From the IMG/VR virus record IMGVR_UViG_644736359_000006: DNA of 31,135 nt, one strand, 5' to 3'. Of this stretch, positions 4,455 to 29,497 are shown piece by piece (the stretch's first letter is position 1; every line of letters begins with the position of its first letter). The position numbers and the translations under genes were made by a program. Source of the stretch: a virus (lineage: Duplodnaviria > Heunggongvirae > Uroviricota > Caudoviricetes). The notes under the pieces were generated by a model. It worked only from the letters and a program-made list of their open reading frames with translations, was not told the DNA's origin and ran no database searches.

Positions 4455-4736
4455 TCACATCCAGCCACGAAGTTGATGCTCAACAACAACCGCGTATTTA
4501 TCGAATATTGACGATTTTTTTGCATCATTAATGATGCGCACGTTTACAAAATATCCGTCTTCCTTAACACATACCGGCTCGCCATCTTCAGTAAGTTCTC
4601 CGGTTTCTTTGTACACGTTACCTATCACGTCAATAAGAATATCATCCTGCATCGACTCGTCATCATAATAGCCAGCACTCTTCATAAAGGCCGAAAAGTC
4701 GGCCTTGTCTGTGAATTTGATAATTAAATCTCGCAT
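4455..4736 (-). CDS. Hypothetical protein translationally coupled to stf
   Basis: 93-aa ORF whose ATG overlaps the stf stop (TAATG); acidic, no recognisable motif. Confidence 0.4.
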   Translation of the reverse strand: MRDLIIKFTDKADFSAFMKSAGYYDDESMQDDILIDVIGNVYKETGELTEDGEPVCVKEDGYFVNVRIINDAKKSSIFDKYAVVVEHQLRGWM

Positions 4737-7114
4737 TATATTATCTCTCCCATTTGCGCATCGGTTAATTCTTTATGCCATATTCTAAAATTCCTGATAT
4801 AACCAAATAAATGACGTAAGCCGGCTGTAGTCTGGCCTCCAATCCTTATACCTGTAGCACCACTAACACTCTTCCACGTTGTTGATGCTGGTGTTGATAA
4901 AACCCCATTGCAGCCAGCCTGAAACTTGCCATCGCTTTTTATTCTATATACAGCGATAATCTTTCTTGGGTAATTTCCAGGTGGAAATGATATTGGATTA
5001 CCAAATTGAACATATGGAGTTCCTACACTACCTGCTGTATTTCTGAATGCAAAAACAAAAGCGTCGTCTTTTGTTTTAAATCCTGTTATATCATAAATTC
5101 TAGGCGCGGAATTTGGTGCTATAGACCAATTTTTATTCACTTCAACCATGCAGGTTAAAGGTTTGCTGGCCATGTTATTTTTACAAGGCAATGTAACAAT
5201 ATCGCTTGCTCGCGTTGATGCAACTGTATCGGAAATGATAAAAGATGATGCGCATGAGCCGCCTTCAAATTGTGGTGTCGTAACATCCAAATATTCCCCG
5301 CCCAAATAAGTTCCAGGTGAAACAGGTGGAGCAATTTGGATCTGAGAGCCAACCATATTATCAATAGCTTCAGATTGATATGTAACCTCGAAATAAATCC
5401 ATCCATTAGATTCTTTCTCCGCTCGGGCGGTTATTCTTGCAGCCCCTCCTCCCGTTTTCCTAATGGACATATCTGTTATATTAAGATATGCATCTGCCAG
5501 ATAAAAATATGCGGACCCGTCATATCTTTCAAATCTTATACGACATTGTATATTAGCACTATCGCTTTTTACACGACATGATGTTGTAACATACTTTTCA
5601 GTTCCAGTAACATCGACACCTCTTCCTCCTGAAACCGCAGCGATATTCATTGTCGTATTTGTCCCAATTTTTTCGTCCTTTATTTGAAACCGCCCATAAG
5701 TAAAGCCAAACTCATCAACACCACTTTCTGTTATAGTTACACTTGTTGTAGCTCCCCACTTAGATGGCGTAAGTGAATTAAGATGATAGTTGGTTCTTTG
5801 TCCTTCAATCAGCAAACCTTCTCGTTCAAATCGCGGTTCGTCAACTTCAGCAACGGTTAATACTCCTGATTTATTAATGTATGTTGCACCTGATGCGCGT
5901 TTGAAGCTAACAACCTTATCGGATGGCATTTTAATAACATCATCACCTACAGTTATTTGCTTATAACCAGGCGAAAAGCCAGCAAGCATATCCAGTGAAT
6001 CGTTAAACGGTATCCACACATCGGGAAGCGGCTGCAAAACTTGTTTATACGGCTCCGCAGCCTGGCTTGCATACTCTCTGGCTGCGTCTTCACTTGCTTT
6101 TGCAGCCGTCTGGCTTGCAGCGGATGCTTTCGCCGAGTTAGCCGCCGCAGTCTCGCTCGCCTTTGCGTTGGTTTCACTGGTTTTTGCAGCTTTTTGACTG
6201 TTGGCTGATGCAGTGGCAGAAGAAGCCGCCGCACTTGCAGAACCAGCTGCGGCACTCTCGCTTTGGGCCGCTGCATCCTGACTGTTTTTCGCCGCAGTTT
6301 CGCTGGCTTTGGCATTCGTTTCGCTGGTCTTCGCTGCCGTCTGGCTGGACTTTGCGTTAGTTTCGCTCGTCTTCGCTGCTTTCTGGCTGTTAGCTGCAGC
6401 AGTTGCTGATCCAGCTGCTGAAGTCGCAGAACCGGCTGCCGCACTCTCGCTTTCGGCTGCTGCAGCCTGACTGCTTTTCGCCGCAGTTTCACTGGTTTTG
6501 GCATTCGTTTCGCTTGTTTTCGCTGCCGCCTGGCTGGACTTTGCGTTGGTTTCGCTCGTCTTTGCTGCTGTCTCGCTATTTTTCGCGTTGTTTTCTGATT
6601 TTTTAGCTGCTGTCGCGGAGTTTGCCGATGCAGTCTGCGAGGCCGCTGCCGCCTGTGCGCTGTTAGCTGCATGCGTTTCTGAGGTTTTCGCCGCGTTCTT
6701 CGATGATGCCGCTGCTGTTTCTGATTTCTTTGCTGCCGCTGCGCTCTGAGAGGCGGCTTCAGCGTTGCGTGCTGCTTCTTCCACCATTGCCTCAAAACGA
6801 CGCAATGCCTCCGGCATGACATCATCTTCCGTCATGGCACCGAGAAAATCATTCAGCGTACCAGGTCTGGAACCTTCATAGACGGTAATGGTTCCGGCAT
6901 GTGAAGGCGGAAAACCTTCAACCAGCAGGGTGACGCTGTACTGGCCATACTCGACATCCATGCTGTAACGCCCGGCTTCATCCGGATTTTCAGAGGCTAC
7001 CGTGTTCACCAGTACCGTGGTGCTGTTACGCTTTGCCTTCAGTTGAATAGTGCAGTTCTGTATTGGTTTTCCCGCACCATCTTTCAGCACACCTGAGATT
7101 TTTACTGCTGCCAT
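4736..7114 (-). CDS. stf: Side tail fibre protein, lambda Stf-like N-terminus, Ala/Ser/Thr-rich repeat shaft, LamG/ConA-like C-terminal domain
   Basis: N-terminus MAAVKISGVLKDGAGKPIQNCTIQLKA... matches lambda Stf; GGAG RBS before ATG 7114 (ORF track starts at upstream GTG 7120); C-terminal ...LFGYIRNFRIWHKELTDAQMGEII resembles the LamG jelly-roll end motif. Confidence 0.85.
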   Translation of the reverse strand: MAAVKISGVLKDGAGKPIQNCTIQLKAKRNSTTVLVNTVASENPDEAGRYSMDVEYGQYSVTLLVEGFPPSHAGTITVYEGSRPGTLNDFLGAMTEDDVMPEALRRFEAMVEEAARNAEAASQSAAAAKKSETAAASSKNAAKTSETHAANSAQAAAASQTASANSATAAKKSENNAKNSETAAKTSETNAKSSQAAAKTSETNAKTSETAAKSSQAAAAESESAAAGSATSAAGSATAAANSQKAAKTSETNAKSSQTAAKTSETNAKASETAAKNSQDAAAQSESAAAGSASAAASSATASANSQKAAKTSETNAKASETAAANSAKASAASQTAAKASEDAAREYASQAAEPYKQVLQPLPDVWIPFNDSLDMLAGFSPGYKQITVGDDVIKMPSDKVVSFKRASGATYINKSGVLTVAEVDEPRFEREGLLIEGQRTNYHLNSLTPSKWGATTSVTITESGVDEFGFTYGRFQIKDEKIGTNTTMNIAAVSGGRGVDVTGTEKYVTTSCRVKSDSANIQCRIRFERYDGSAYFYLADAYLNITDMSIRKTGGGAARITARAEKESNGWIYFEVTYQSEAIDNMVGSQIQIAPPVSPGTYLGGEYLDVTTPQFEGGSCASSFIISDTVASTRASDIVTLPCKNNMASKPLTCMVEVNKNWSIAPNSAPRIYDITGFKTKDDAFVFAFRNTAGSVGTPYVQFGNPISFPPGNYPRKIIAVYRIKSDGKFQAGCNGVLSTPASTTWKSVSGATGIRIGGQTTAGLRHLFGYIRNFRIWHKELTDAQMGEII
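6120..6600. repeat. Tandem 189-bp (63-codon) repeats inside stf
   Basis: Unit beginning gcactctcgcttt at 6252 recurs at 6441 (period 189 bp, ~90% identity) with a degenerate copy upstream; encodes repeated ...SESAAAGSA...ANSQKAAKTSETNAK... blocks; explains the shadow ORFs on both strands. Confidence 0.7.
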
Positions 7115-7125
7115 ATCCACTCCAC

Positions 7126-7844: not shown

Positions 7845-9148
7845 TCAGCTAATCATGATGCCTGCAGTGGCTTTCTTCATCACCACAACCAGCAAATCGC
7901 TGATACTTGCTGTGGGATACCAGCCATTTACCAGCCATGCCGATACAGAAAATTCCAGTGTCATTACACCACTGCCTGCAGGCATATCAATAACACCCGT
8001 ATATATCAGCGTATTATCCAGAGCCGTTCGGTTATAAATTTCAGCACCGTTTTTTCGTACTATCAGACGGCATGAGGAGTAGATATCAGTATGATCTTGC
8101 TCATGTTTAGCGCCACTGAATGCCACCGCCGGAATAACAATTTGCCGGTCAAACGGCTGATCGTCATAAACCCTGACGGTAATGGTCCCTGATGGCCACC
8201 GCTCCGGTGCACGGGAGTCCCGGGGGAAAGCTTTGCCCACTGTTTTAACGAGATCGCCTTCAATCTGGTTCGCGGACAGTTTTCCCAGAACCCGGCAGTT
8301 CTCGTTAATCGTGACGTTGTTGAGCGTCCCGGAGTTCGCATTCACGTTACCGCTAATATCGGCATTTTTCGCCGTCAGCCGCCCGTCCGGTGTCAGGGAA
8401 AATGCCGGAGGATTACCGCCGCTGGTAATGGTGGGAGCCGTCAGATATTTCAGGAACACTTCGTTCATGAATATCTGATCGCCCTGACCAACAAACATCG
8501 GCTTTGTGTTGCCATTCGCAGGATTAATCATCGCAATCCTGTCCGCCGCCAGCAGCACCTGACTCTGCATACCGTCAGGGGTATTCTCAATACCGGCACC
8601 AATACCCGCGATATAAAGGCGTCCGTCCTGCATCTGCTGCAGCTTCACAGCCCACATGCTGTTCAGGTTATTATTTGTATCAACCTGAACCTTCTGTATC
8701 TGCTGGATTGCCGCACTCTGGTCTTCCAGTTTCTTATTGACGGTCTGCGTGATTTCATTACTGACATCCGTGATGGACGTTCTGATTTCCGCCAGGTCAG
8801 GCGCAAGCTGACCGTTATCAATCTGCGTCCACAACTCCTGAGCCAGATGGGTTTTCCCTATCTCTCCTTTGAAAAAATTCAGATAGCCGGATGCATCATC
8901 ACTCGGCTGGCCAACAGCCTCCACGAATGCCGATTTGCCAACGGTGTTCACACTGCGGATGTAAAAATAATAATCATGGCCCGGTTTGATATTGATACTG
9001 GCGGCTATCCAGTACAGCGCCGTGCCAAGATAGCGTGCTGTGGTTTCAACCTGCCTGATATCCGCAATCCGCTTTTCCGAGAACCAGAACTCAAACTGTA
9101 CCGTCGGATCATAAACCGCAAGATGCGGCGTGGCGGTTATCTGAAAAT
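7845..9148 (-). pseudogene. Host-specificity protein J (tail tip), C-terminal ~434 codons only, 5' end removed by IS3
   Basis: Long ORF runs without a native start straight into the IS3 left end at 9149; position upstream of lom matches lambda J. Confidence 0.7.
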
Positions 9149-9204
9149 TGATCTTACCCAGCAATAGTGGACACGCGGCTAAGTGAGTAAACTCTCAGTC
9201 AGAG

Positions 9205-9513
9205 GTGACTCACATGACAAAAACAGTATCAACCAGTAAAAAACCCCGTAAACAGCATTCGCCTGAATTTCGCAGTGAAGCCCTGAAGCTTGCTGAACGC
9301 ATCGGTGTTACTGCCGCAGCCCGTGAACTCAGCCTGTATGAATCACAGCTCTACAACTGGCGCAGTAAACAGCAAAATCAGCAGACGTCTTCTGAACGTG
9401 AACTGGAGATGTCTACCGAGATTGCACGTCTCAAACGCCAGCTGGCAGAACGGGATGAAGAGCTGGCTATCCTCCAAAAGGCCGCGACATACTTCGCGAA
9501 GCGCCTGAAATGA
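9205..9513 (+). CDS. insE: IS3 OrfA (InsE), HTH transposase component
   Basis: ORF ...[31 protein letters not shown]... with C-terminal leucine-zipper-like region; first ATG at 9205, conventional start a few codons later. Confidence 0.85.
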
Positions 9514-10376
9514 AGTATGTCTTTATTGAAAAACATCAGGCTGAGTTCAGCATCAAAGCAATGTGCCGCGTGCTCCGGGTGGCCCGCAGCGGCTGGTATA
9601 CGTGGTGTCAGCGGCGGACAAGGATAAGCACGCGTCAGCAGTTCCGCCAACACTGCGACAGCGTTGTCCTCGCGGCTTTTACCCGGTCAAAACAGCGTTA
9701 CGGTGCCCCACGCCTGACGGATGAACTGCGTGCTCAGGGTTACCCCTTTAACGTAAAAACCGTGGCGGCAAGCCTGCGCCGTCAGGGACTGAGGGCAAAG
9801 GCCTCCCGGAAGTTCAGCCCGGTCAGCTACCGCGCACACGGCCTGCCTGTGTCAGAAAATCTGTTGGAGCAGGATTTTTACGCCAGTGGCCCGAACCAGA
9901 AGTGGGCAGGAGACATCACGTACTTACGTACAGATGAAGGCTGGCTGTATCTGGCAGTGGTCATTGACCTGTGGTCACGTGCCGTTATTGGCTGGTCAAT
10001 GTCGCCACGCATGACGGCGCAACTGGCCTGCGATGCCCTGCAGATGGCGCTGTGGCGGCGTAAGAGGCCCCGGAACGTTATCGTTCACACGGACCGTGGA
10101 GGCCAGTACTGTTCAGCAGATTATCAGGCGCAACTGAAGCGGCATAATCTGCGTGGAAGTATGAGCGCAAAAGGTTGCTGCTACGATAATGCCTGCGTGG
10201 AAAGCTTCTTTCATTCGCTGAAAGTGGAATGTATCCATGGAGAACACTTTATCAGCCGGGAAATAATGCGGGCAACGGTGTTTAATTATATCGAATGTGA
10301 TTACAATCGGTGGCGGCGGCACAGTTGGTGTGGCGGCCTCAGTCCGGAACAATTTGAAAACAAGAACCTCGCTTAG
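9510..10376 (+). CDS. insF: IS3 OrfB (InsF), DDE transposase catalytic domain, in -1 frame relative to orfA
   Basis: 288-aa ORF overlapping the orfA stop (ATGA) in the -1 frame; DDE-type core ...HTDRGGQY... Confidence 0.85.
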
Positions 10377-10529
10377 GCCTGTGTCCATATTACGTGGGTA
10401 GGATCAATTCACCTAAATACGAGGCATTGCTGTAGTTGAATTGCATTGCTGTATTAGCCTGACAGTGACAGAATACGATATTGACTCTGTCACTTGTGAA
10501 ATGGTCAGAATGGTTAGCAGTTATGGTGA

Positions 10530-15489: not shown

Positions 15490-16758
15490 CTGATATCATT
15501 GGGGTTACACCAGGTAAGTATAGGTGGAAAATCAATATTCGCCAGTTCAACAATAAGGAAAATCTCATTGCATCACAACTATAAAACCATGTGTTTAACT
15601 CACAAAAAACAAATCATTAAACTAATCTGTTATATTATAATAGCTGCGTGCAATAATAATATTATATGCTCTTAATATTCACTTGAAATATCTTCATATA
15701 AAAACAGATTGAATAAAATCTTTTGGGGCTGGTATGTTTACCAACATTAAATTGCATCTCAATGTTTTCTTTAGCGTGAACAGGATTTTTATAAAAACTG
15801 ACACTATGAGCATCATAGCGTAGTTTTTACGATTGTAAATATCCTGCATACAGGAACTCATCACTTTCAGATGATATCGCATACAGTTAATTCACCATCA
15901 GTCTTAGAGCCAGTTCTTCCGGATAGGGATCGAAGTAATTCTGTGTAAGCAAGTAATCATTAGGATACTCACCCAGATAATGCTTCAGCAGAGTCAACGG
16001 CGCAAGAAGAGGCAATGTGCCAAAGCGATAGTTAAGTATAACCTCGCTCAACTCTTTACGCTGGCGTGTGCTTAAGTAATTACTAAAATACCCCTGTATA
16101 TGCATCAGCACATTCGTGTGATTTTTACGTGATGCTGGTTTTCTGAGAATCGCCATCAGATTATCACGATACACCTCAAAGTATGATTCAAGGTCCGCCC
16201 ACTCGTGTATTGCAGCCACAAATGGTCCCATATCTTTATAGCCTGCCTGGCTATGCGCCAACAACTGAAGCTTATAACGACTATGAAAAGCTAATAACTC
16301 TCTTCTTGATAATTTCTCCTTGTAAAGGTGATTGAGCTCATCCAAAGCAAAAACTCTTTCAATAAAATTCTCACGAAGCACTGGATCATGTAATCGCCCA
16401 TCCTCTTCAACCGGTAGCCAGGAAAACTTTTCCATCAAAGTGCTCGTAAATAGTCCCACTCCATCTTTACGACCTCGATTACCATTTTCATCATAGACAC
16501 GCACGCGCTCCATGCCACAGCTGGGAGATTTAGCACAAACCACAAACCCCGATACATCCTTTAATTTGTCCATATAAGAACGACTAAACTCTGTCATTCT
16601 CTCTGTCACATCCTCATTCTGGTCGTGGCTGAAACACATCCGTATATTTCCTTGCTTCGAGCGCACAAGTCGTAGAGCAGGACGCGGAACTGGCAGCCCT
16701 ATTGATCTTACCCAGCAATAGTGGACACGCGGCTAAGTGAGTAAACTCTCAGTCAGAG

Positions 16759-17067
16759 GTGACTCACATGACAAAAACAGTATCAACCAGTAAAAAACCC
16801 CGTAAACAGCATTCGCCTGAATTTCGCAGTGAAGCCCTGAAGCTTGCTGAACGCATCGGTGTTACTGCCGCAGCCCGTGAACTCAGCCTGTATGAATCAC
16901 AACTCTACAACTGGCGCAGTAAACAGCAAAATCAGCAGACGTCTTCTGAACGTGAACTGGAGATGTCTACCGAGATTGCACGTCTCAAACGCCAGCTGGC
17001 AGAACGGGATGAAGAGCTGGCTATCCTCCAAAAGGCCGCGACATACTTCGCGAAGCGCCTGAAATGA
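16759..17067 (+). CDS. insE: IS3 OrfA (InsE)
   Basis: Identical product to copy 1 orfA. Confidence 0.85.
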
Positions 17068-17930
17068 AGTATGTCTTTATTGAAAAACATCAGGCTGAGT
17101 TCAGCATCAAAGCAATGTGCCGCGTGCTCCGGGTGGCCCGCAGCGGCTGGTATACGTGGTGTCAGCGGCGGACAAGGATAAGCACGCGTCAGCAGTTCCG
17201 CCAACACTGCGACAGCGTTGTCCTCGCGGCTTTTACCCGGTCAAAACAGCGTTACGGTGCCCCACGCCTGACGGATGAACTGCGTGCTCAGGGTTACCCC
17301 TTTAACGTAAAAACCGTGGCGGCAAGCCTGCGCCGTCAGGGACTGAGGGCAAAGGCCTCCCGGAAGTTCAGCCCGGTCAGCTACCGCGCACACGGCCTGC
17401 CTGTGTCAGAAAATCTGTTGGAGCAGGATTTTTACGCCAGTGGCCCGAACCAGAAGTGGGCAGGAGACATCACGTACTTACGTACAGATGAAGGCTGGCT
17501 GTATCTGGCAGTGGTCATTGACCTGTGGTCACGTGCCGTTATTGGCTGGTCAATGTCGCCACGCATGACGGCGCAACTGGCCTGCGATGCCCTGCAGATG
17601 GCGCTGTGGCGGCGTAAGAGGCCCCGGAACGTTATCGTTCACACGGACCGTGGAGGCCAGTACTGTTCAGCAGATTATCAGGCGCAACTGAAGCGGCATA
17701 ATCTGCGTGGAAGTATGAGCGCAAAAGGTTGCTGCTACGATAATGCCTGCGTGGAAAGCTTCTTTCATTCGCTGAAAGTGGAATGTATCCATGGAGAACA
17801 CTTTATCAGCCGGGAAATAATGCGGGCAACGGTGTTTAATTATATCGAATGTGATTACAATCGGTGGCGGCGGCACAGTTGGTGTGGCGGCCTCAGTCCG
17901 GAACAATTTGAAAACCAGAACCTCGCTTAG
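17064..17930 (+). CDS. insF: IS3 OrfB (InsF)
   Basis: As copy 1 but ...EQFENQNLA instead of ...EQFENKNLA. Confidence 0.85.
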
Positions 17931-18299
17931 GCCTGTGTCCATATTACGTGGGTAGGATCATATAGCCATTTCCGGACATACTGGTCTGAATGTTACCCAT
18001 TCCACTAATTTGTCCATTAAAAAGTCATCTCTTTTGTGACCACCATCAAAACGAACAGCAGAACCGCCCAAACAACCGCTGATCCCAATCACAGGTTTTT
18101 TTATCATTTCCTCCCCCTTGACTAATTCATTAACACATAAACTTTGTAGTGCACGGACTAAATTGCCTTTCTGGCTTCATCACTGACAATTTTTCTGTTA
18201 TTGACTATTCCTAATATAGTAGGAAAGTTCTTTAAGTGATCGGTCGTACTCATCTATCTTTCATACTTACTCTCAACTATCAAAAGTACAGGATTTATT

Positions 18300-19374: not shown

Positions 19375-20025
19375 TTAGGCCAGCACACCAATTGCCAGCG
19401 CGCGATCGATAAATCGAAAAATCAGCTCCAGTTGGGAGCCATACTTCTCTTCAAATGCCACGGTATCCGTATGCAACTCGTCGTGATGCTTTCTGCACAA
19501 AGGCAAAACAAAGAGATCATGTGCTTTGGTTCCCATTCCGCCCTGCCCGTGACCAATCAGATGATGCGGATCGTCGGCTGGCATACCGCAGCAAGCACAC
19601 GGCTGTGTCTTAACCCAGCGTGTGTATTTCTCCTTAACCCACCGGTGACGTTTAGGCAGCTTCATGAAAGATTCCGGAGACTCTGGATCAACGGTGATGC
19701 TTACCACCGTCTTTTCCTGTGATGGGTTTTGTTGCTGGTGGGCGTGAGGCAACGGTGCAAGATTTTTTGTGCGCTGTTTCAATATGCTGGTGGCGGTCTG
19801 CTCTCCCGGTACGATGTCGCTTTCGCGGTACACCGAGCAGATTTTTTCCGCTGGTAATCCCAGCGAGCGACGTAATACCGCTTCCGGTAGCGCGTCCGCC
19901 AGCTGATTGCGGACCGCCCACCAGGATACCCGGGTATTGTGGAATACCGGCATGGATTCACGGCCCGGCTTAACGACCACCAGCCCAAGTTCCGGTACCA
20001 GAACAGGTCGAAGTAATACCCGCAC
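19375..20025 (-). CDS. DUF968-like nuclease-domain protein (YdfU-like)
   Basis: C-terminal ...[46 protein letters not shown]...; N-terminal half unrecognised; GC-rich with several overlapping shadow ORFs. Confidence 0.5.
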
Positions 20026-20026
20026 G

Positions 20027-20305
20027 TTACCTCCAGATGCGTTGCTGGAATGTACGGGACGGACGCGGTGGGCGTTCGGAGTAAGGCAATCTGACTGAGA
20101 TTATCCAGTGACGGTAGTCGAGACTAAGGGCTTTCTTAACCTCGTATCCGCGCCTGCGGTAACACTGAATTATCCATTCAGCCTGCTCTTCAGTGCATGG
20201 AGGGTGTTGGAACCATTCAGACTTGAATGCGTGAGAATACCGCTCGTGCGTGCAGACAAGAACGGGCGAATTATCAGAATTGTAATATTTTACGTTGCGT
20301 GCCAT
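20027..20305 (-). CDS. Hypothetical nin-region protein
   Basis: 92-aa ORF, stop 2 nt before the DUF968 start (operon coupling). Confidence 0.4.
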   Translation of the reverse strand: MARNVKYYNSDNSPVLVCTHERYSHAFKSEWFQHPPCTEEQAEWIIQCYRRRGYEVKKALSLDYRHWIISVRLPYSERPPRPSRTFQQRIWR

Positions 20306-20371
20306 CGGTTTTCTCCGGTGGCACGGTGTTACTCAGCGGGAGTTCAGCCCCGCGCAAGATTGTAGATGAGT

Positions 20372-20623
20372 TTATTCTTCTGCAAAAGCTGAAAAGCCTG
20401 CTTTTATTCCGATCTCTTTCAGTGCCTGTAATGAAGTGACAAACTCACCTTCGCGCAAGATAAATCCGTCTGTCACTCGACCATCCACAAAATTAATTAA
20501 CGCAGCCCCATTCTTTCGCAAACACATAATGCGGTAATGACTAACAAGATTTCCATTTTCAACGCACACAGCATAGAGGCCATCTTCACAAAAATTTTTA
20601 CGCAGTTCTTCGATGTTCATCAT
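20372..20623 (-). CDS. Hypothetical protein at the rem position
   Basis: 83-aa ORF; length and position relative to hok match rem of Qin, but sequence not verified. Confidence 0.4.
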   Translation of the reverse strand: MMNIEELRKNFCEDGLYAVCVENGNLVSHYRIMCLRKNGAALINFVDGRVTDGFILREGEFVTSLQALKEIGIKAGFSAFAEE

Positions 20624-20740
20624 CAGAATCCTTCCGGATAATTAGCTCTCCCCTTTAAGGGACCATCCCTCTTATCCCTGCGCGCTACTTAAGTATTTTT
20701 GATTCTATTCCGGCACCGTCCAGAACTTCAAACGCGTTGA

Positions 20741-20769
20741 AAATAAAAACAAAAACCCGCCGAAGCGGG
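20741..20769 (-). terminator. Rho-independent terminator downstream of hok
   Basis: Stem cccgc/gcggg with cgaa loop, followed on the minus strand by UUUUUGUUUUUAUUU. Confidence 0.6.
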
Positions 20770-20839
20770 TTAAGTGCGAGTGCGTTGAGGATGCCTGCCA
20801 CATCAGAGGTGGCGAGGGATTTCTCCCTCGCCGGGTCTC

Positions 20840-20995
20840 TTACTCCTCAGGTTCGTAAGCTGTGAAGACAGCGACCTCCGTCTGGCCGGTTCGGATTCGT
20901 ACCTCGCAGAGGTCTTTCCTCGTTACCAGTGCCGTCACTATGACGGTTAAACAGATGACGATCAGGGCGATTAACATCGCCTTTTGCTGCTTCAT
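20840..20995 (-). CDS. hokD: Hok-family type I toxin
   Basis: 51-aa product MKQQKAMLIALIVICLTVIVTALVTRKDLCEVRIRTGQTEVAVFTAYEPEE; in-frame upstream extension (mok-like) in the ORF track; AAGGAGAAG RBS. Confidence 0.85.
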   Translation of the reverse strand: MKQQKAMLIALIVICLTVIVTALVTRKDLCEVRIRTGQTEVAVFTAYEPEE

Positions 20996-21607
20996 AGCCT
21001 GCTTCTCCTTGCCTTTCGGCACGTAAGAGGCTAACCTACATGTGTCTAGCATGAAATTGGCCTCAGATTAATGTTAAGCGTCTTGCAGGACGCGTAATGT
21101 TAACTGGGGCTTTTCTCTATCTGCCGTTGGTGTTCATGCCCGAGGCAGATAGCCTCAAGCACCCGCAGCCATTCTACTTAACTACCGTTACCTCTCCAAT
21201 ATGAAATCAATCAGAAAGGTGATCCATAAGAACAATAACAAGACAATAAATTGCCATTACAGCCACAATAGCCAGCGTGCATTTGAGAACCAGCACATAA
21301 ATCTCCTGCTCTTGACGTATACAGGCACTGATAAATATGTGTCTTCGTGCTCGTTACTTCAATACGTAAGCGTCAGTTGCGCGTAATCAAATCAGACAAC
21401 CGACTTTAAACCAGGGACAAACAGCAGGTAAAATAATCAAACGTTATTTTAAGCCATATCATGGCTGCAAGATTTCCTCTAATTTCAACAAGATGAGCAG
21501 GTCATTGCTTGCACTGATGACCTGCTCATTAATCATGATTATTTGAAAATTAAGGTAGGCGTACTATATATAGAAACACTGCTACGCTCCGTTGGCATAA
21601 TATAAAA

Positions 21608-22294
21608 TCATTCCTGGCCTTCTTTACCGTAGTGGAGTTGACCAATTTTGATTAGAGGGCGTCCCTGAGATTTGCGGTGTAGATTGGTATCGCGCAGTGA
21701 ATACACGCAGCCACAATATTCCTGCTGATAGAATTGTTCGCGCTTGCTGATTTCAATCATGCGGGAAGAGCCGCCCTGCTTTCGCCAGTTATAATCCCAG
21801 TACACCATGCCCGGATAATACGCGACGGCTCGCCGTCCACAGTCGTTAACCTGCTGCATATTTTTCCAGCGTGAAATGCCCAGTGAGCTACTGATCACAC
21901 TGAAACCATTTTCAGCGGCATACAGCGCAGTCCGCTCAAAACGCATGTCAAAACACATGGTACAACGGATCCCTCGTTCAGGCTCCCATTCCATTCCTTT
22001 GGCTCGCTCAAACCAGTTGTCTGTGTCGTAATCAGCATCAATAAATGGCACGCCGTGTTGTTTAGCAAAGCGAATATTCTCATCCTTACGAATTAAATAC
22101 TCTTTCTGAGGATGAATGTTCGGGTTGTAGAAAAAGATGGTGTAGTCGATTCCCGAGGCCTGAAGCGCCTCCATCACTTCACCGGAACATGGAGCACAGC
22201 AAGAGTGCAGTAATAGTTTTTTTGCCCCGTTTGGGAGCTCCAATTTGGGGCGTTTGAAATCAGCAACAGTCATAAATGTGTTTATGAGGTTCAT
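21608..22294 (-). CDS. QueH-like (DUF208) epoxyqueuosine reductase homologue
   Basis: Motifs [12 protein letters not shown] near the N-terminus and [10 protein letters not shown] near the C-terminus; start codon uncertain (ATG 22294 or 22273, or GTG 22387), none with a clear RBS. Confidence 0.5.
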
Positions 22295-22326
22295 GAAAAT
22301 AGCAAAAAGTGTAGCATCAGAACGGG

Positions 22327-22560
22327 CTATCGGAAACAGATGTCTAAATCTGGTAATGTCTGCTTTTGATGCAAAGCAGACAACCACGGCAGCGCACGAA
22401 AATCAGCTATAATGTCGGGATTAATAATCGGGTGACGTCCATCACATAGCGAATGTTCCTCTTTCCTGATATCGCTAAATATCGACCATTCGTCATTCTT
22501 ATCGAACCAGAGCATGCGACTGCCACAGCACATGTCGAGAATGGTAGCCGATGTACTCAC
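22327..22560 (-). CDS. Small ORF with DMCCGS motif, possibly 5' part of a frameshift-split gene
   Basis: GTG start overlapping the upstream stop (GTGA) with GAGGTGA RBS; product ...[19 protein letters not shown]...; frame overlaps the QueH-like frame by ~60 nt. Confidence 0.3.
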
Positions 22561-22979
22561 AGCATCACCTCCCGATAATTCCCCTGATAAAACGTCAGAA
22601 CACGCTGCATAACTTCGCTCTTCCGGCACTCGCGACAGATTATGTTTAGACGACTGTCGTAGCGGCGTATTTCTCCATCAGGTAATGACCAGATAAGGTC
22701 CGGATCAACCACAGCAGGTTTCTTCACCTTTGCCCTCGAGAGTTTTTTGCGGGCGTTTTGCCAGTCCTTACGCGCCTGTTCAGACGGGAATAACCCGTAG
22801 CCGGAGTTGTATACATCGCCACTGGCTACCAGCTCTCTGGCAAGAACGCTCATCAGATATCTAGTCGCACCTGTTTTAGCTTCCAGTTGCCGTAACGTCT
22901 CACGACCGCTCTGGCGCACGAGTTCCACCACCTGCCCTTTAATTTTTTCCCGCTCTTCTTGTGTAAAAACTTTTGCCAC
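22557..22979 (-). CDS. Hypothetical protein, possible DNA-binding
   Basis: 140-aa basic ORF with C-terminal ...ICRECRK... cysteine pair; family not recognised. Confidence 0.45.
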   Translation of the reverse strand: MAKVFTQEEREKIKGQVVELVRQSGRETLRQLEAKTGATRYLMSVLARELVASGDVYNSGYGLFPSEQARKDWQNARKKLSRAKVKKPAVVDPDLIWSLPDGEIRRYDSRLNIICRECRKSEVMQRVLTFYQGNYREVML

Positions 22980-23019
22980 AACTCCCCCTTAAAATTACCT
23001 CATGACCTGAAATCAACAC

Positions 23020-24039
23020 TTATCCTCTGAAACCAGGCGGAATTTCTGTATCCGGTTCAGAAATATGATTAACACAACGCTGTACAGGTGAACGTCCCAG
23101 GCGGATGACCAGTTCGTCCCATTTTTCGCGGAGCTTTGACGGGCTCATGATGTTTTTTACCCAGAATGGATCTCGCTGAACCCGACCAAACATTTCGCAA
23201 ATTTGTCTGTGGCTTCTGCCATCCAGCATCCGCATTGTGCGCACGTCATTGGCCCAGGCAGTCCAGTTAGGCTCTTTTGGTCGCATGATCTCGCCATCAT
23301 CACTGGCTGCCTGTTCGTAGAGACCCACGATCCGCCCCCAGATCCACTGCGCACACGCCAAATCCTCCCTGCTACCCCACTGGCGTTTTTTCGCACTAAA
23401 CACAACCGCGTCGGAGTTCCGGGTTAAAAAATCCTGTTCAGTCGTCTGCGGGTCCGGTTGCGAAGCTTCCGGACGAAAAGTGTTTTTATTCTCTGTAGTA
23501 ATCTCTGTTGTATTCTCTGTAAGATCATCAGGCCATTTTGACCCGATGACATTGGATCGTTTTGAACCAATGGAGCGTTTCATTTTGACCTCTTCCATCG
23601 TGTCATTTTGACCTGATGGAGCGGCGCATTTTGAACCGATGGATTCGTTCAATTTGCCACCATCTAAAAGCTCGCTCCCATAGTTGATCGTGTAGAAATT
23701 GGTCATATCGCGCTTTGATTTATTGAGCTTTTCACAACGCAAAAGCCCCAGCGTTTTCAGACTTGCAAACGCGCGCTTTAACGTTGACTCTGACCAGAAT
23801 GGGAACTGTTCCAGCCATTGTTCCGTTGTGTTATAAATCCAGCGAACACCATCACATTCCATACCGGAGTTGGTATCTCTCAACCAGTAGTGCAGTTGTT
23901 GCAAAACAATGGCTTCGTTTAAGCCGATTTTCATTGCCAGCTGCGTGTTTATAACCAGTGGGCGTTCAGCAAAAAGAAGACTCATAATTCCATCCAGCTT
24001 TTTGTTGGTATTGCTGTCGATACGCAAGCTTGAAAGCAA
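23020..24039 (-). CDS. Phage replication initiator (O-like / replisome organiser)
   Basis: 339-aa ORF; N-terminal ...PLVINTQLAMKIGLNEAIVLQQLHYWL... HTH region; central SIGSK repeats encoded by iterons; likely start at internal MSLLFAERP (23985). Confidence 0.6.
   Translation of the reverse strand: MLSSLRIDSNTNKKLDGIMSLLFAERPLVINTQLAMKIGLNEAIVLQQLHYWLRDTNSGMECDGVRWIYNTTEQWLEQFPFWSESTLKRAFASLKTLGLLRCEKLNKSKRDMTNFYTINYGSELLDGGKLNESIGSKCAAPSGQNDTMEEVKMKRSIGSKRSNVIGSKWPDDLTENTTEITTENKNTFRPEASQPDPQTTEQDFLTRNSDAVVFSAKKRQWGSREDLACAQWIWGRIVGLYEQAASDDGEIMRPKEPNWTAWANDVRTMRMLDGRSHRQICEMFGRVQRDPFWVKNIMSPSKLREKWDELVIRLGRSPVQRCVNHISEPDTEIPPGFRG
23534..23661. repeat. Origin-like iterons inside the replication gene
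   Basis: 5-6 copies of CATTTTGA(C/A)C...ATGGAGCG with ~23-bp period; adjacent 23490-23520 has three TCTCTGT repeats and AT-rich DNA. Confidence 0.65.
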
Positions 24040-24487
24040 TTGCTTTTTCTATAAGTTCGTCAGTTTCACGATCTACAACGGCAGGATCTGCAAAAAGCAG
24101 TCCGGATTCCACCACATCGCCATATTCTTTATTTAACCCGGCGATCATGTACGTAATACTTTTTCCATCACTGATCTCACGATACAACCTGAAATCACTA
24201 ATCCGGATAGCCTCCATAATTGCAGGCACTAGCGCTGTGAACTTTTCACGCTTATCCCTGGTGTCGATAGCCTTCCAGCGTTCGAATATCTTCACTCGAT
24301 TAACGCTAAGCGCTCGCTGATCAACCGCGCCACCTTCATATGTGACACGCTGAACATCGATGTTCGGGCGCTCTTTCAAAGCCCAGAATGCTTCAGTGAT
24401 TAATATCGTCGCCTGCTCCTGTGTCATTCCTGGTCGACATATCCAGGCATCCAGAGCCTCACGAGCCTGTTCAGGAGTGATTTTCAT
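23966..24487 (-). CDS. Hypothetical protein at the cII position
   Basis: 173-aa ORF overlapping both neighbours (operon coupling); possibly YdaT-like, not verified. Confidence 0.4.
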   Translation of the reverse strand: MKITPEQAREALDAWICRPGMTQEQATILITEAFWALKERPNIDVQRVTYEGGAVDQRALSVNRVKIFERWKAIDTRDKREKFTALVPAIMEAIRISDFRLYREISDGKSITYMIAGLNKEYGDVVESGLLFADPAVVDRETDELIEKAIAFKLAYRQQYQQKAGWNYESSFC

Positions 24488-24701
24488 TGTTCAACCGCCC
24501 CGCCCGCTTCGTCTTACGATATTCGTCATAAACTTTGGGATCATACTGAAGCTCCCCGCCAGATGCCTCCTGTAGACGCATCGCGCGACCTTCAGGAACC
24601 AGTATCCCCCAAGCAGCAACACTTGCCAGTCTCACTCCTGCGGCATTGGCAAGCTTTGTTTTGCTGCCAAAAAAAGTAATTGCGTCAACTTTAAGCATCA
24701 A
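24471..24701 (-). CDS. dicC: DicC-like (Cro-like) regulator
   Basis: 76-aa ORF MMLKVDAITFFGSKTKLANAAGVRLASVAAWG... with HTH; divergent from dicA across a 77-bp operator region. Confidence 0.65.
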   Translation of the reverse strand: MMLKVDAITFFGSKTKLANAAGVRLASVAAWGILVPEGRAMRLQEASGGELQYDPKVYDEYRKTKRAGRLNNENHS

Positions 24702-24778: not shown

Positions 24779-25186
24779 ATGGATACAAGAACCCTAGGCC
24801 AGCGAGTTCTGGCGCGACGAAAAGAATTACGCTTAACACAACGAGAAGCTGCGCGCCTCGCTGGAGTTGCTCACGTCACAATTTCACAATGGGAAAGAGA
24901 CGAAACCCAGCCAGTCGGAAAACGATTGTTTGCTTTAGCGGATGCTCTGAAGTGCTCACCTACATGGCTAATGTTTGGTGACGAAGACAAGGCACCAGTG
25001 CCTGCACAAGAACTTCATGTGGAAACAGAGCTAACTCCCAACCACAAAGAATTGATCGAATTATTCGATGCTCTTCCATCTTCCGAGCAGGAAGCCTTGC
25101 TGTCTGAAATGCGCGCAAGAGTAGAAAACTTCAACAAACTCTTCGAAGAAATGCTTAAAGCGCGTAAAAATAAATCAATAAAATAA
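24779..25186 (+). CDS. dicA: DicA-family XRE HTH repressor
   Basis: 135-aa ORF with motifs ...LTQREAARLAGVAHVTISQWERDETQP...SPTWLMFGDEDK...MRARVENFNKLFEEMLKARK. Confidence 0.85.
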   Translation: MDTRTLGQRVLARRKELRLTQREAARLAGVAHVTISQWERDETQPVGKRLFALADALKCSPTWLMFGDEDKAPVPAQELHVETELTPNHKELIELFDALPSSEQEALLSEMRARVENFNKLFEEMLKARKNKSIK

Positions 25187-27025: not shown

Positions 27026-29497
27026 ATGAGTAAAGTCTTTATTTGCGCCGCTATTCCTGACGAACTGGCAACAAGGGAAGAAGGCGCTGTGGCTGTAGCC
27101 ACAGCCATTGAAGCTGGCGACGAACGCCGTGCTCGAGCAAAATTTCACTGGCAGTTCCTGGAACATTATCCGGCTGCTCAGGACTGCGCTTATAAATTTA
27201 TTGTCTGCGAGGATAAACCTGGCATACCCCGCCCTGCCCTCGATTCATGGGATGCTGAATATATGCAGGAAAACCGCTGGGATGAGGAGTCTGCTTCTTT
27301 TGTCCCGGTTGAGACTGAATCCGATCCGATGAACGTCACTTTTGACAAGCTGGCCCCTGAAGTACAGAACGCTGTCATGGTTAAGTTCGACACATGTGAA
27401 AACATCACCGTTGATATGGTTATTAGCGCACAGGAATTGTTGCAGGAAGACATGGCAACATTCGACGGACATATCGTTGAAGCGTTGATGAAAATGCCAG
27501 AAGTTAACGCCATGTATCCGGAGCTTAAGTTGCACGCCATTGGGTGGGTTAAGCATAAATGTATTCCTGGTGCTAAATGGCCCGAAATTCAGGCAGAGAT
27601 GCGCATCTGGAAAAAACGTCGCGAAGGTGAACGCAAGGAAACCGGAAAATACACGTCTGTTGTTGATCTCGCCCGCGCCAGAGCCAATCAACAGTACACT
27701 GAAAATTCAACAGGAAAAATCAGCCCGGTCATTGCTGCCATTCATCGCGAATACAAGCAGACATGGAAAACACTGGATGACGAACTGGCCTACGCTCTCT
27801 GGCCTGGTGATGTGGATGCCGGAAACATTGACGGCAGCATCCATCGCTGGGCAAAAAAAGAAGTTATCGACAACGACCGCGAAGACTGGAAGCGTATCTC
27901 GGCATCAATGCGCAAACAGCCTGATGCCCTTCGCTACGACCGCCAAACTATTTTTGGCCTTGTCCGTGAGCGTCCGATCGACATTCACAAAGATCCCGTA
28001 GCACTGAACAAATATATCTGCGAATACCTGACGACAAAGGGCGTGTTTGAGAATGAAGAAACAGACCTGGGCACTGTTGATGTTCTCCAGTCATCAGAAA
28101 CACAAACTGATGCAGTGGAAACTGAGGTATCTGATATCCCAAAAAATGAAACCGCGCCGGAAGCTGAACCATCTGTAGAGCGTGAGGGGCCGTTCTATTT
28201 CCTCTTCGCAGATAAGGACGGAGAAAAATACGGTCGCGCAAACAAACTTTCTGGTCTGGATAAGGCACTGGCTGCTGGCGCCACTGAAATCACAAAAGAA
28301 GAATATTTTGCCCGAAAAAATGGCACATACACGGGCTTACCGCAAAATGTAGATACCGCTGAAGATTCAGAACAACCAGAGCCGATAAAAGTTACCGCTG
28401 ACGAAGTAAACAAAATTATGCAGGCAGCCAATATCAGCCAGCCTGACGCCGATAAGTTGCTTGCTGCATCACATGGTGAATTTGTTGAAGGGATTAGTGA
28501 CCCGAATGATCCGAAATGGGTTAAGGGGATCCAGACCCGCGATTCTGTGAACCAGAACCAGCATGAATCGGAACGGAACTACCAAAAAGCGGAACAAAAC
28601 AGCCCAAATGCGTTACAAAACGAGCCAGAAACGAAACAGCCTGAACCAGTGGCGCAACAGGAAGTGGAAAAAGTCTGCACCGCCTGCGGTCAGACCGGCG
28701 GCGGCAACTGCCCTGATTGTGGCGCGGTGATGGGCGACGCAACATACCAAAAAACATTCGATGAAGAGTATCAGGTTGAAGTTCAGGAAGATGATCCGGA
28801 GGAAATGGAAGGCGCTGAACATCCACACAAGGAGAACACTGGCGGCAATCAGCATCACAATAGCGATAATGAAACTGGCGAGACGGCAGATCACTCAATT
28901 AAGGTGAACAGTCATCACGAAATCACATCCACCAGCAGGACGTGTGACCATCTAATGATCGACCTTGAAACCATGGGAAAAAATCCTGATGCACCGATCA
29001 TCTCAATAGGTGCAATATTTTTCGATCCGCAAACCGGAGATATAGGACCGGAATTTAGTAAGACTATCGATCTGGAAACTGCTGGCGGAGTCATTGATCG
29101 GGACACCATTAAATGGTGGCTTAAGCAATCACGCGAAGCACAATCTGCCATTATGACCGATGAAATCCCGCTAGATGATGCACTGTTACAATTGCGGGAA
29201 TTTATCGACGAAAACTCCGGTGAATTTTTTGTTCAGGTTTGGGGAAATGGAGCCAACTTCGACAACACGATTTTGCGCCGTTCATACGAACGGCAGGGGA
29301 TCCCCTGCCCGTGGCGTTACTACAACGATCGCGATGTACGCACAATCGTTGAGCTGGGGAAAGCCATAGATTTCGATGCCAGAACGGCTATTCCATTCGA
29401 AGGTGAGCGCCATAATGCACTTGATGACGCCCGTTACCAAGCAAAATACGTTTCAGTTATCTGGCAAAAACTGATCCCGAGTCAGGCTGATTCTTAA
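27026..29497 (+). CDS. ydfE: Full-length YdfE-type exonuclease: RecE-like N-terminal region, zinc ribbon, C-terminal DnaQ-like DEDDh 3'-5' exonuclease domain
   Basis: 823-aa ORF; ...ADKLLAASHGEFVEGISDPNDPKWVKGIQTRDSV... ; CTACGQ...CPDCG; C-terminal MIDLETMGKNPDAPIISIGAIFFD...HNALDDARYQAKY. Confidence 0.75.
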   Translation: MSKVFICAAIPDELATREEGAVAVATAIEAGDERRARAKFHWQFLEHYPAAQDCAYKFIVCEDKPGIPRPALDSWDAEYMQENRWDEESASFVPVETESDPMNVTFDKLAPEVQNAVMVKFDTCENITVDMVISAQELLQEDMATFDGHIVEALMKMPEVNAMYPELKLHAIGWVKHKCIPGAKWPEIQAEMRIWKKRREGERKETGKYTSVVDLARARANQQYTENSTGKISPVIAAIHREYKQTWKTLDDELAYALWPGDVDAGNIDGSIHRWAKKEVIDNDREDWKRISASMRKQPDALRYDRQTIFGLVRERPIDIHKDPVALNKYICEYLTTKGVFENEETDLGTVDVLQSSETQTDAVETEVSDIPKNETAPEAEPSVEREGPFYFLFADKDGEKYGRANKLSGLDKALAAGATEITKEEYFARKNGTYTGLPQNVDTAEDSEQPEPIKVTADEVNKIMQAANISQPDADKLLAASHGEFVEGISDPNDPKWVKGIQTRDSVNQNQHESERNYQKAEQNSPNALQNEPETKQPEPVAQQEVEKVCTACGQTGGGNCPDCGAVMGDATYQKTFDEEYQVEVQEDDPEEMEGAEHPHKENTGGNQHHNSDNETGETADHSIKVNSHHEITSTSRTCDHLMIDLETMGKNPDAPIISIGAIFFDPQTGDIGPEFSKTIDLETAGGVIDRDTIKWWLKQSREAQSAIMTDEIPLDDALLQLREFIDENSGEFFVQVWGNGANFDNTILRRSYERQGIPCPWRYYNDRDVRTIVELGKAIDFDARTAIPFEGERHNALDDARYQAKYVSVIWQKLIPSQADS

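Follow-up and report, generated by a model that had tools for sequence, protein, structure and literature searches.

A probable replication origin within the initiator gene of a lambdoid prophage of the Qin type

The 31,135-nucleotide (nt) stretch analysed here, hereafter the window, is the IMG/VR virus record IMGVR_UViG_644736359_000006 (Caudoviricetes), and at 23020..23985 on its minus strand (stop codon included) both the open reading frame listing and RefSeq place a gene for a 321-amino-acid protein which we regard as the replication initiator of a Qin-type lambdoid prophage. The RefSeq entry, WP_000054497.1, is labelled 'hypothetical protein', and some records read 'phage replication protein O'. 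The start codon is most likely the ATG at 23985, which matches the 321-residue RefSeq annotation, rather than at the TTG at 24039 from which a first-pass annotation of the sequence had read the gene. The same annotation had described five to six iterons of about 23 base pairs (bp) inside the coding sequence, followed on their 3' side by three TCTCTGT repeats in an AT-rich stretch, and both sets of repeats were recovered in place. In our judgement this region is probably the vegetative replication origin of the prophage, embedded in its own initiator gene. Such an arrangement is of a known kind; the initiator family is an unstudied one, with an O-like gene only, an N-terminal domain that no curated family describes and a cassette of iterons plus 12-mers.

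The iteron array, delimited by repeat detection and by enrichment, covers 23531..23670 and consists of six units of 23-24 bp, all in the same orientation on the minus strand: 23670-23647 (degenerate), 23647-23624, 23624-23601, 23601-23578, 23578-23555 and 23554-23531. The five good units share the core (G)GTCAAAATG and follow each other at spacings of 23, 23, 23 and 24 bp. Downstream in the gene direction, detection and composition define three tandem 12-mers of the ACAGAGA type, ACAGAGAATACA, ACAGAGATTACT and ACAGAGAATAAA (23485..23520, minus strand), with the consensus ACAGAGAnTAnn. Repeat-finding tools reported the two arrays as a 23-bp period at 23526-23664 and a 12-bp period at 23487-23522. 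The iterons correspond to codons 107-153 and the AT-rich 12-mers to codons 156-167, and the guanine-plus-cytosine (GC) fraction falls to 0.33 at 23480-23539, the lowest value for any 60 bp across the 2.1 kb profiled around the gene.

Both repeats are strongly enriched at this place. The motif GKTCAAAAYG matches five times in the window, always on the minus strand and between 23534 and 23636, when 0.54 matches are expected from shuffled sequences, and the count of five was never reached in 100 shuffling trials. The 20-mer consensus of the iterons matches three times, all within the array (0.06 expected), and ACAGAGAWTA four times (0.09 expected), three of these at 23487-23520. The short core TTTTGAMC alone, with 7 matches against 4.1 expected window-wide, is not significant, so that the longer cores are needed. 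DnaA boxes occur in the window at chance level (32 found, 32.4 expected) and none lies within the origin zone, which does not suggest a dependence on DnaA. Dyad symmetry in the iterons is limited to a partial CATC...GATG, 71-78% complementary between units.

Only three regions of the window are this periodic, and the other two have a period of 21, a multiple of three. One lies at 6143-6577, in the open reading frame 4736-7120 (minus strand) of a 794-amino-acid side-tail-fibre-like protein, as a tandem repeat with units of 189, 42 and 21 nt which encodes Ala/Ser/Thr-rich 'AAKTSETNAKSSQ' repeats; with a period divisible by three, this is a repeat at the protein level. The other, with a strong 21-nt periodicity at about 28511-28670, falls by its position inside a large exonuclease (RecE-like) gene, a pseudogene in E. 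coli ATCC 8739. Just past the 12-mers, at 23449-23474 on the minus strand, an inverted repeat GTCCGG-N14-CCGGAC contains the palindrome GAAGCTTC, and variation at third codon positions remains low up to about codon 180, beyond the 12-mers. The DNA of 23449-23474 is highly similar in the SfII-type initiator genes and may be either a part of the origin or a recombination joint.

Since 23 is not divisible by three, one and the same iteron core GGTCAAAATG is translated in all three reading frames, giving GSK, GQN and VKM in successive copies. The SIGSK peptide repeats that had been reported for the iterons are present in copies 1, 4 and 5, which share a frame, but copies 2 and 3 encode GQN and VKM. 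In a set of 48 distinct alleles from 80 viral contigs, the third codon position is variable in 11 of the 61 codons of the origin zone (codons 107-167) against 139 of 260 elsewhere in the gene (Fisher p = 3.6e-7), and codon positions 1 and 2 are more variable in the origin zone than elsewhere (p = 0.03). The iteron adjoining the 12-mers and the 12-mers themselves do not contain a single variable site. In the AlphaFold2 model, residues 110-178 (23452..23658, minus strand), whose coding sequence spans the iterons, the 12-mers and some 30 nt more, form a predicted disordered linker with a predicted local distance difference test score (pLDDT) below 50.

Codon usage points in the same direction. 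Across the family defined by the N-terminal domain, the Thr-Glu pairs of the 12-mers are encoded by ACA in 83 of 86 cases and by GAG in 82 of 86, against backgrounds of 28% and 25% for these codons in the part of each gene that encodes the N-domain. This bias extends to Staphylococcus, where GAA is dominant, and to the Pseudomonas-type clade, in which these genes use ACA less than any other Thr codon, and NCAGAGA is kept even where the amino acids change. The first-pass annotation had allowed for a protein-level repeat with no spacing regularity; what was found instead is a 23-nt period, a core read in three frames and conservation at synonymous sites. The three frames, the third-position invariance and the disordered linker together show that selection on the repeats acts on the DNA and not on the peptide.

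The repeats separate two folded domains of the initiator. The N-terminal winged-helix domain (residues 1-108; 23662..23985, minus strand) is modelled by AlphaFold2 with a pLDDT of 78-91 as a helix-turn-helix plus wing, and it is presumed to be the iteron-binding domain. Its best matches in the PDB are 4pql and 5kbj, both N-terminal domains of Rep proteins, at weak Foldseek scores (E 0.01-0.1, template-modelling (TM) score 0.55-0.58). The C-terminal helical domain (residues 180-300; 23086..23448, minus strand; pLDDT 76-94) has a modelled fold that weakly resembles that of DnaD, and residues 170-294 are homologous to the C-terminal domain of lambda O by identity (36%, E 2e-16) and by the pattern of invariant columns. 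Together with a match of the protein to PHROG 391, 'replication initiation O-like' (1.4e-91), this homology bears out the O-like initiator proposed in the first-pass annotation.

Profile searches of the whole protein against Pfam and NCBIfam found no family at threshold, and per-domain scans gave nothing usable. Neither PF04492 (Phage_rep_O), to which lambda O scores 5.7e-36 in the same scan, nor PF06970 (RepA_N) matched at E <= 10, and the Pfam matches of the N-domain were at chance level only. A sequence search of the PDB with the initiator returned only the DnaT tail described below and YteR, the latter by chance. The N-domain is 45-75% identical to that of initiators from Klebsiella, Pseudomonas-type and Staphylococcus phages, and none of these relatives carries a precomputed Pfam domain. 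The family exceeds 1400 clusters at E <1e-5; its members are mostly labelled 'hypothetical protein', yet they are widespread, from E. coli, Citrobacter, Salmonella and Klebsiella to Staphylococcus, Bacillus and Hydrogenimonas. Their C-domains differ, being DnaB_2/DnaD-like in Staphylococcus phage P954, Phg_2220_C in Klebsiella phage MC05, and of no assigned family in SopranoGao and a Pseudomonas phage.

The repeats accompany the N-domain throughout this family. In most of 54 unique N-domain loci from Enterobacteria, Pseudomonas-type and Staphylococcus, 22-23 nt is the top autocorrelation period in the 150 nt after the N-domain, and one to four ACAGAGA 12-mers then follow in all but one of the loci. 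E. coli and Klebsiella share the iteron core GGTCAAAATG, other Gram-negative lineages have GGGCAAATTGCAC or GGGCAAAATGC and Staphylococcus has GGACAAAATG or GTATCAAAATGA, whereas the core of the 12-mer is constant across the clades. In GC-rich relatives the 12-mer block reaches about 50% GC. The SfII-type initiators pair this C-domain with a PF13730 N-domain, and their repeats are of another sort, with a period of 15 bp and without ACAGAGA. In mEp460_4F5 a Qin-type N-domain is joined to an SfII-type C-domain, which places a recombination joint just after the origin. In these comparisons the N-domain and the repeats travel as one cassette that is joined to different C-domains. The 12-mers, kept in phages of hosts as far apart as Staphylococcus and E. 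coli although the iterons diverge, are a candidate recognised element, for which we propose the role of an unwinding element or of a second initiator site.

The last 21 residues of the initiator (residues 301-321, VQRCVNHISEPDTEIPPGFRG; 23023..23085, minus strand) are identical at 15 of 21 positions to residues 159-179 of the host DnaT. This tail, which includes the terminal SEPDxxIPPGFRG, matched the DnaT chains 2ru8, 6aep and 9zbt of the PDB. When the initiator was aligned with DnaT by hhalign, the tail alone aligned (E 6.9e-5), and the NCBIfam DnaT model NF002770 gave 16.4 bits, against a cut-off of 201, over residues 302-321 only. A homology of the whole initiator to DnaT was rejected, the match being confined to the tail. 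DnaT-like tails are also carried by initiators with other C-domain families (Phg_2220_C, in Klebsiella MC05) and by those with the SfII-type N-domain.

No P, DnaC or DnaB gene lies between the initiator and the DUF977/Ren-like gene directly downstream, and a tblastn search with lambda P found no match in the Qin-type loci. Likewise, no loader gene was found in 3.5-6 kb on either side of the initiator in HannyBb, PhiR42_1, mEp460 (4F5) and SfII. Tail and loader were compared over unique lambda-O-type C-domains with at least 1.5 kb of downstream sequence. A lambda-P homologue is adjacent in all 35 cases where the tail reads ...W..EAWENTL or, as in lambda, ...DWIYGVDL, and in none of the 33 with a DnaT-like tail (...GFRG/S, one ...GFRV), of which 26 have no loader and 7 a DnaC paralogue. 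Look-ups of proteins with the PF13730 N-domain gave the same picture: P0324, with a W-type tail, is followed by Phage_lambda_P, and P0295 and P0328, with DnaT-type tails, are without it. That the DnaT-like tail never occurs with a P gene suggests a route by which the host helicase may be recruited.

The DnaC paralogue of the seven unique types, which together stand for 20 loci, is about 50% identical to host DnaC, belongs to the IstB family and starts 10 nt downstream of the initiator. In these 20 related viral contigs it sits exactly between the initiator stop and DUF977, some of them also carrying DUF1627. The DnaC-like cassette is cleanly absent from the window, where homology to such loci resumes at 23002. 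In the host, dnaT and dnaC are adjacent. According to a 2025 survey of 314 lambdoid phages, 34 have an O homologue only, a layout described as 'not yet understood' (PMC12315714). No binding partner of the extreme C-terminus of DnaT was found in the parts of the literature consulted, including those of a 2026 preprimosome paper; DnaB-DnaC and PriA are possible partners of the tail.

The genes around the initiator are those of a lambdoid early region. Upstream in the same operon, and overlapping the initiator start by 20 nt, lies a cII-like gene of the YdaT family (23966..24487, minus strand; Pfam PF06254; PHROG 163 'CII-like', 8.7e-41), itself preceded by a Cro/DicC-like regulator (24471..24701, minus strand; Pfam P22_Cro, 5e-12, and annotation), the first gene of a rightward early operon which reads through the origin. 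A divergent DicA/cI-like repressor (24779..25186, plus strand; Pfam HTH_3, 1.5e-14, and annotation) would silence the initiator gene in the lysogen. The DUF977/Ren-like gene identified by Pfam, PHROG and annotation occupies 22557..22979 on the minus strand, so that the order on this strand is cro/dicC-like, cII-like YdaT-family, initiator, DUF977/Ren-like, truncated methyltransferase and QueH. The last two, an epoxyqueuosine reductase QueH (21608-22387) and a truncated S-adenosylmethionine-dependent methyltransferase (22327-22629), lie in a nin-like region downstream of the replication module and are an unusual cargo for a lambdoid early region.

The 2.3 kb surrounding the origin are 100% identical to the chromosomes of E. 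coli C, ATCC 8739, B derivatives and others. The ATCC 8739 copy sits beside rspB/ynfA in a Qin-type prophage, and the window is nearly collinear with that prophage. Related initiators occur in the deposited genomes of the phages HannyBb (protein 99.4% identical; DNA 98.8% identical over 19918-24602 of the window), PhiR42_1 (99.4%), mEp460_ev081 (97.5%) and mEp460_4F5 (68.6%); mEp460_ev081, like the others, has no loader gene adjoining the initiator. Searches on Qin, PhiR42/ECOR13, Staphylococcus phage iterons, the PPGFRG motif and prophage 'primosomal protein I' found no publication on this origin.

The Qin prophage of K-12 has no homologue of the initiator gene. Its gene order is dicC, ydfX and ydfW, then flxA and relBE, and homology between the window and K-12 Qin stops at 24208 to resume at 21009. 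In agreement with the first-pass annotation, K-12 Qin therefore lacks the replication module which its relative in the window retains. Between 21009 and 24208 of the window, the initiator, DUF977, the methyltransferase, QueH and the greater part of the cII-like gene have been replaced in K-12 Qin by relBE-ydfV-flxA-ydfW, and the ydfX of K-12 is a leftover N-terminal piece of the cII-like gene.

A first resemblance is to phage lambda. In both, the origin, a probable one in our case, lies within the initiator reading frame, in a rightward early operon where cro and a cII-like gene precede it, and four to six direct repeats at codons ~110-150, spaced by about 20-24 bp, are followed by an AT-rich block and then by a homologous C-domain; the annotated iterons of lambda cover codons 116-144 of O, with the AT-rich stretch next, just before the C-domain homology begins. 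In contrast to lambda, the N-domain is unrelated by sequence to that of O, the iterons have a different sequence, the AT-rich block consists of three conserved 12-mers, no P gene is present and the protein ends in a DnaT-like tail where lambda O ends in ...TDWIYGVDL. The first-pass reading of a lambda ori-within-O architecture thus holds in every part open to computation, with two qualifications: the N-domain is not that of lambda O, and since no P gene follows, the architecture is lambda's and the O/P system is not.

A second resemblance is to the RepA_N initiators of the pSK41 type, which combine a winged-helix N-domain, central in-gene repeats encoding a linker and a DnaD-like helical C-domain (PMC5703833). 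The central position of the repeats and the linker that they encode are common to both, and the folds of the two outer domains may be alike, the best structural matches of our N-domain leading to Rep N-terminal domains at weak scores and our C-domain being weakly DnaD-like. The N-domain of pSK41 Rep binds four boxes located centrally within rep, the central domain encoded by the origin being a dispensable linker, and N-domain and origin are exchanged as a cassette of about 500 bp (PMC5703833). Unlike the RepA_N proteins, our initiator has no PF06970 match, and it belongs to a phage early operon and not to a plasmid with antisense-RNA control. With the O-only phages (LLS, mEp460_4F5, SfII/SfIV) it shares a replication module that consists of one O-like gene and lacks any helicase or loader gene, and with mEp460 and SfII also the C-domain and the DnaT-like tail, the SfII type differing by its PF13730 N-domain and 15-bp repeats in the place of 23-bp iterons. 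As for DnaT, nothing aligns beyond the tail, but the order of initiator and DnaC paralogue in the 20 loci mirrors the host dnaT-dnaC operon. The phages with internal origins in G38P (oriL of Bacillus phage SPP1) and in the lactococcal 'replisome organizer' genes differ in that they encode their own helicase and loader.

From the sequence we infer how such an origin would be bound, where it would unwind, how the helicase would be recruited and how it would fire. Derepression of the DicA-like repressor would allow rightward transcription through cro, the cII-like gene and the initiator, and hence production of the 321-residue protein. Its winged-helix N-domain would bind the five to six head-to-tail 23-bp iterons (23531-23670), and the resulting nucleoprotein complex could destabilise the adjacent AT-rich block with its three ACAGAGA 12-mers (23485-23520). 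The lambda-O-like C-domain and the DnaT-mimicking tail would then recruit host DnaB, through host DnaC or through the PriA/DnaT primosome, with no part for a phage-encoded loader of the P type.

More tentatively, on comparative evidence and with somewhat less than even confidence, we propose that the O-only modules act by DnaT mimicry, with a swappable SEPDxxIPPGFRG specifying the partner, and separately that the 12-mers are a single-strand or unwinding element. The tail may thus dock the origin-bound initiator onto host DnaB-DnaC or PriA and bypass a phage loader, and the ACAGAGA 12-mers may be a sequence-specific single-strand or unwinding element read by a conserved part of the initiator family.

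Several points weigh against an origin at this locus. The N-domain belongs to no curated family, and its structural matches to plasmid Rep proteins are weak even at their best E value (Foldseek E 0.01, TM 0.55). The iterons appear to lack the clear internal dyad symmetry of the lambda 19-mers. With a GC fraction of 0.33, and of about 50% in GC-rich relatives, the 12-mer block is only moderately AT-rich, so that its unwinding role is a guess; the primary binding of the initiator could equally take place at the 12-mers. Because of the shared ancestry of the alleles and loci compared, the p-values for codon positions overstate their independence, the direction of the third-position effect being unambiguous. 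Finally, the window contains two IS3 insertion sequences (9147-10408 and 16703-17960), and the near-identical prophage of ATCC 8739 has annotated pseudogenes (an integrase frameshift, an exonuclease stop and a split Q), which show the resident prophage to be degraded, its origin module nonetheless being intact; the function of the origin in situ in this strain is uncertain.

This last point leads to the alternative that the locus descends from an origin but is now dead, in a cryptic prophage which has lost its helicase loader and other genes and cannot fire. Such a loss would agree with the junction that is empty here and filled by a DnaC paralogue in 20 related loci, and with the IS3 insertions and the frameshifted integrase of near-identical prophages. 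On the other hand, the gene and its repeats are intact and under purifying selection, HannyBb, PhiR42_1, mEp460 and SfII likewise have no loader within the 3.5-6 kb inspected on either side, and modules with O only are present in 34 of the 314 lambdoid phages of PMC12315714; we consider a dead origin unlikely.

Alternatively, the repeats could be control sites, for autoregulation, copy-number 'handcuffing' or a pause in transcription or translation, with the real origin elsewhere. The iterons of plasmids do serve initiation and control alike, the 12-mers are not extremely AT-rich, and the start and unwinding site proposed here is read from sequence features. However, the position and the order of the elements are the same as in the mapped origins of lambda and pSK41, the 31-kb window holds no other repeat array of a non-coding type, and the N-domain and the repeats move as one cassette among different C-domains, all of which makes control sites alone quite unlikely.

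A repeat acting at the protein level, as a SIGSK/TETT linker with no role for the DNA, would fit the (S)IGSK encoded by copies 1, 4 and 5 and the 12-mer period, a multiple of three and mostly read T-E-x-T, but is highly improbable in view of a 23-nt iteron period that puts the core in three frames, third positions more conserved than first and second ones, Thr-Glu pairs written nearly always ACA-GAG contrary to host codon preference in the Staphylococcus and Pseudomonas-type relatives, a segment predicted to be disordered, and an equivalent segment of pSK41 that is dispensable as protein (PMC5703833).

An origin embedded in the initiator gene remains the reading that we favour, and it assigns a working-type origin and its initiator to a gene mostly labelled 'hypothetical protein' in RefSeq. 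The module that K-12 Qin has lost persists in non-K-12 strains of E. coli (C, B, ATCC 8739 and many more), and an intact, repressed origin in their chromosome could drive local over-replication if the DicA-like repressor were lost. The combination of an unnamed winged-helix domain, iterons of 22-23 bp and ACAGAGA 12-mers could guide the annotation of origins in phages of both Gram-negative and Gram-positive hosts. For the roughly one in ten lambdoid phages that have an O-like gene without a loader, the anticorrelation between the DnaT-like tail and P gives a concrete hypothesis of how they may replicate.

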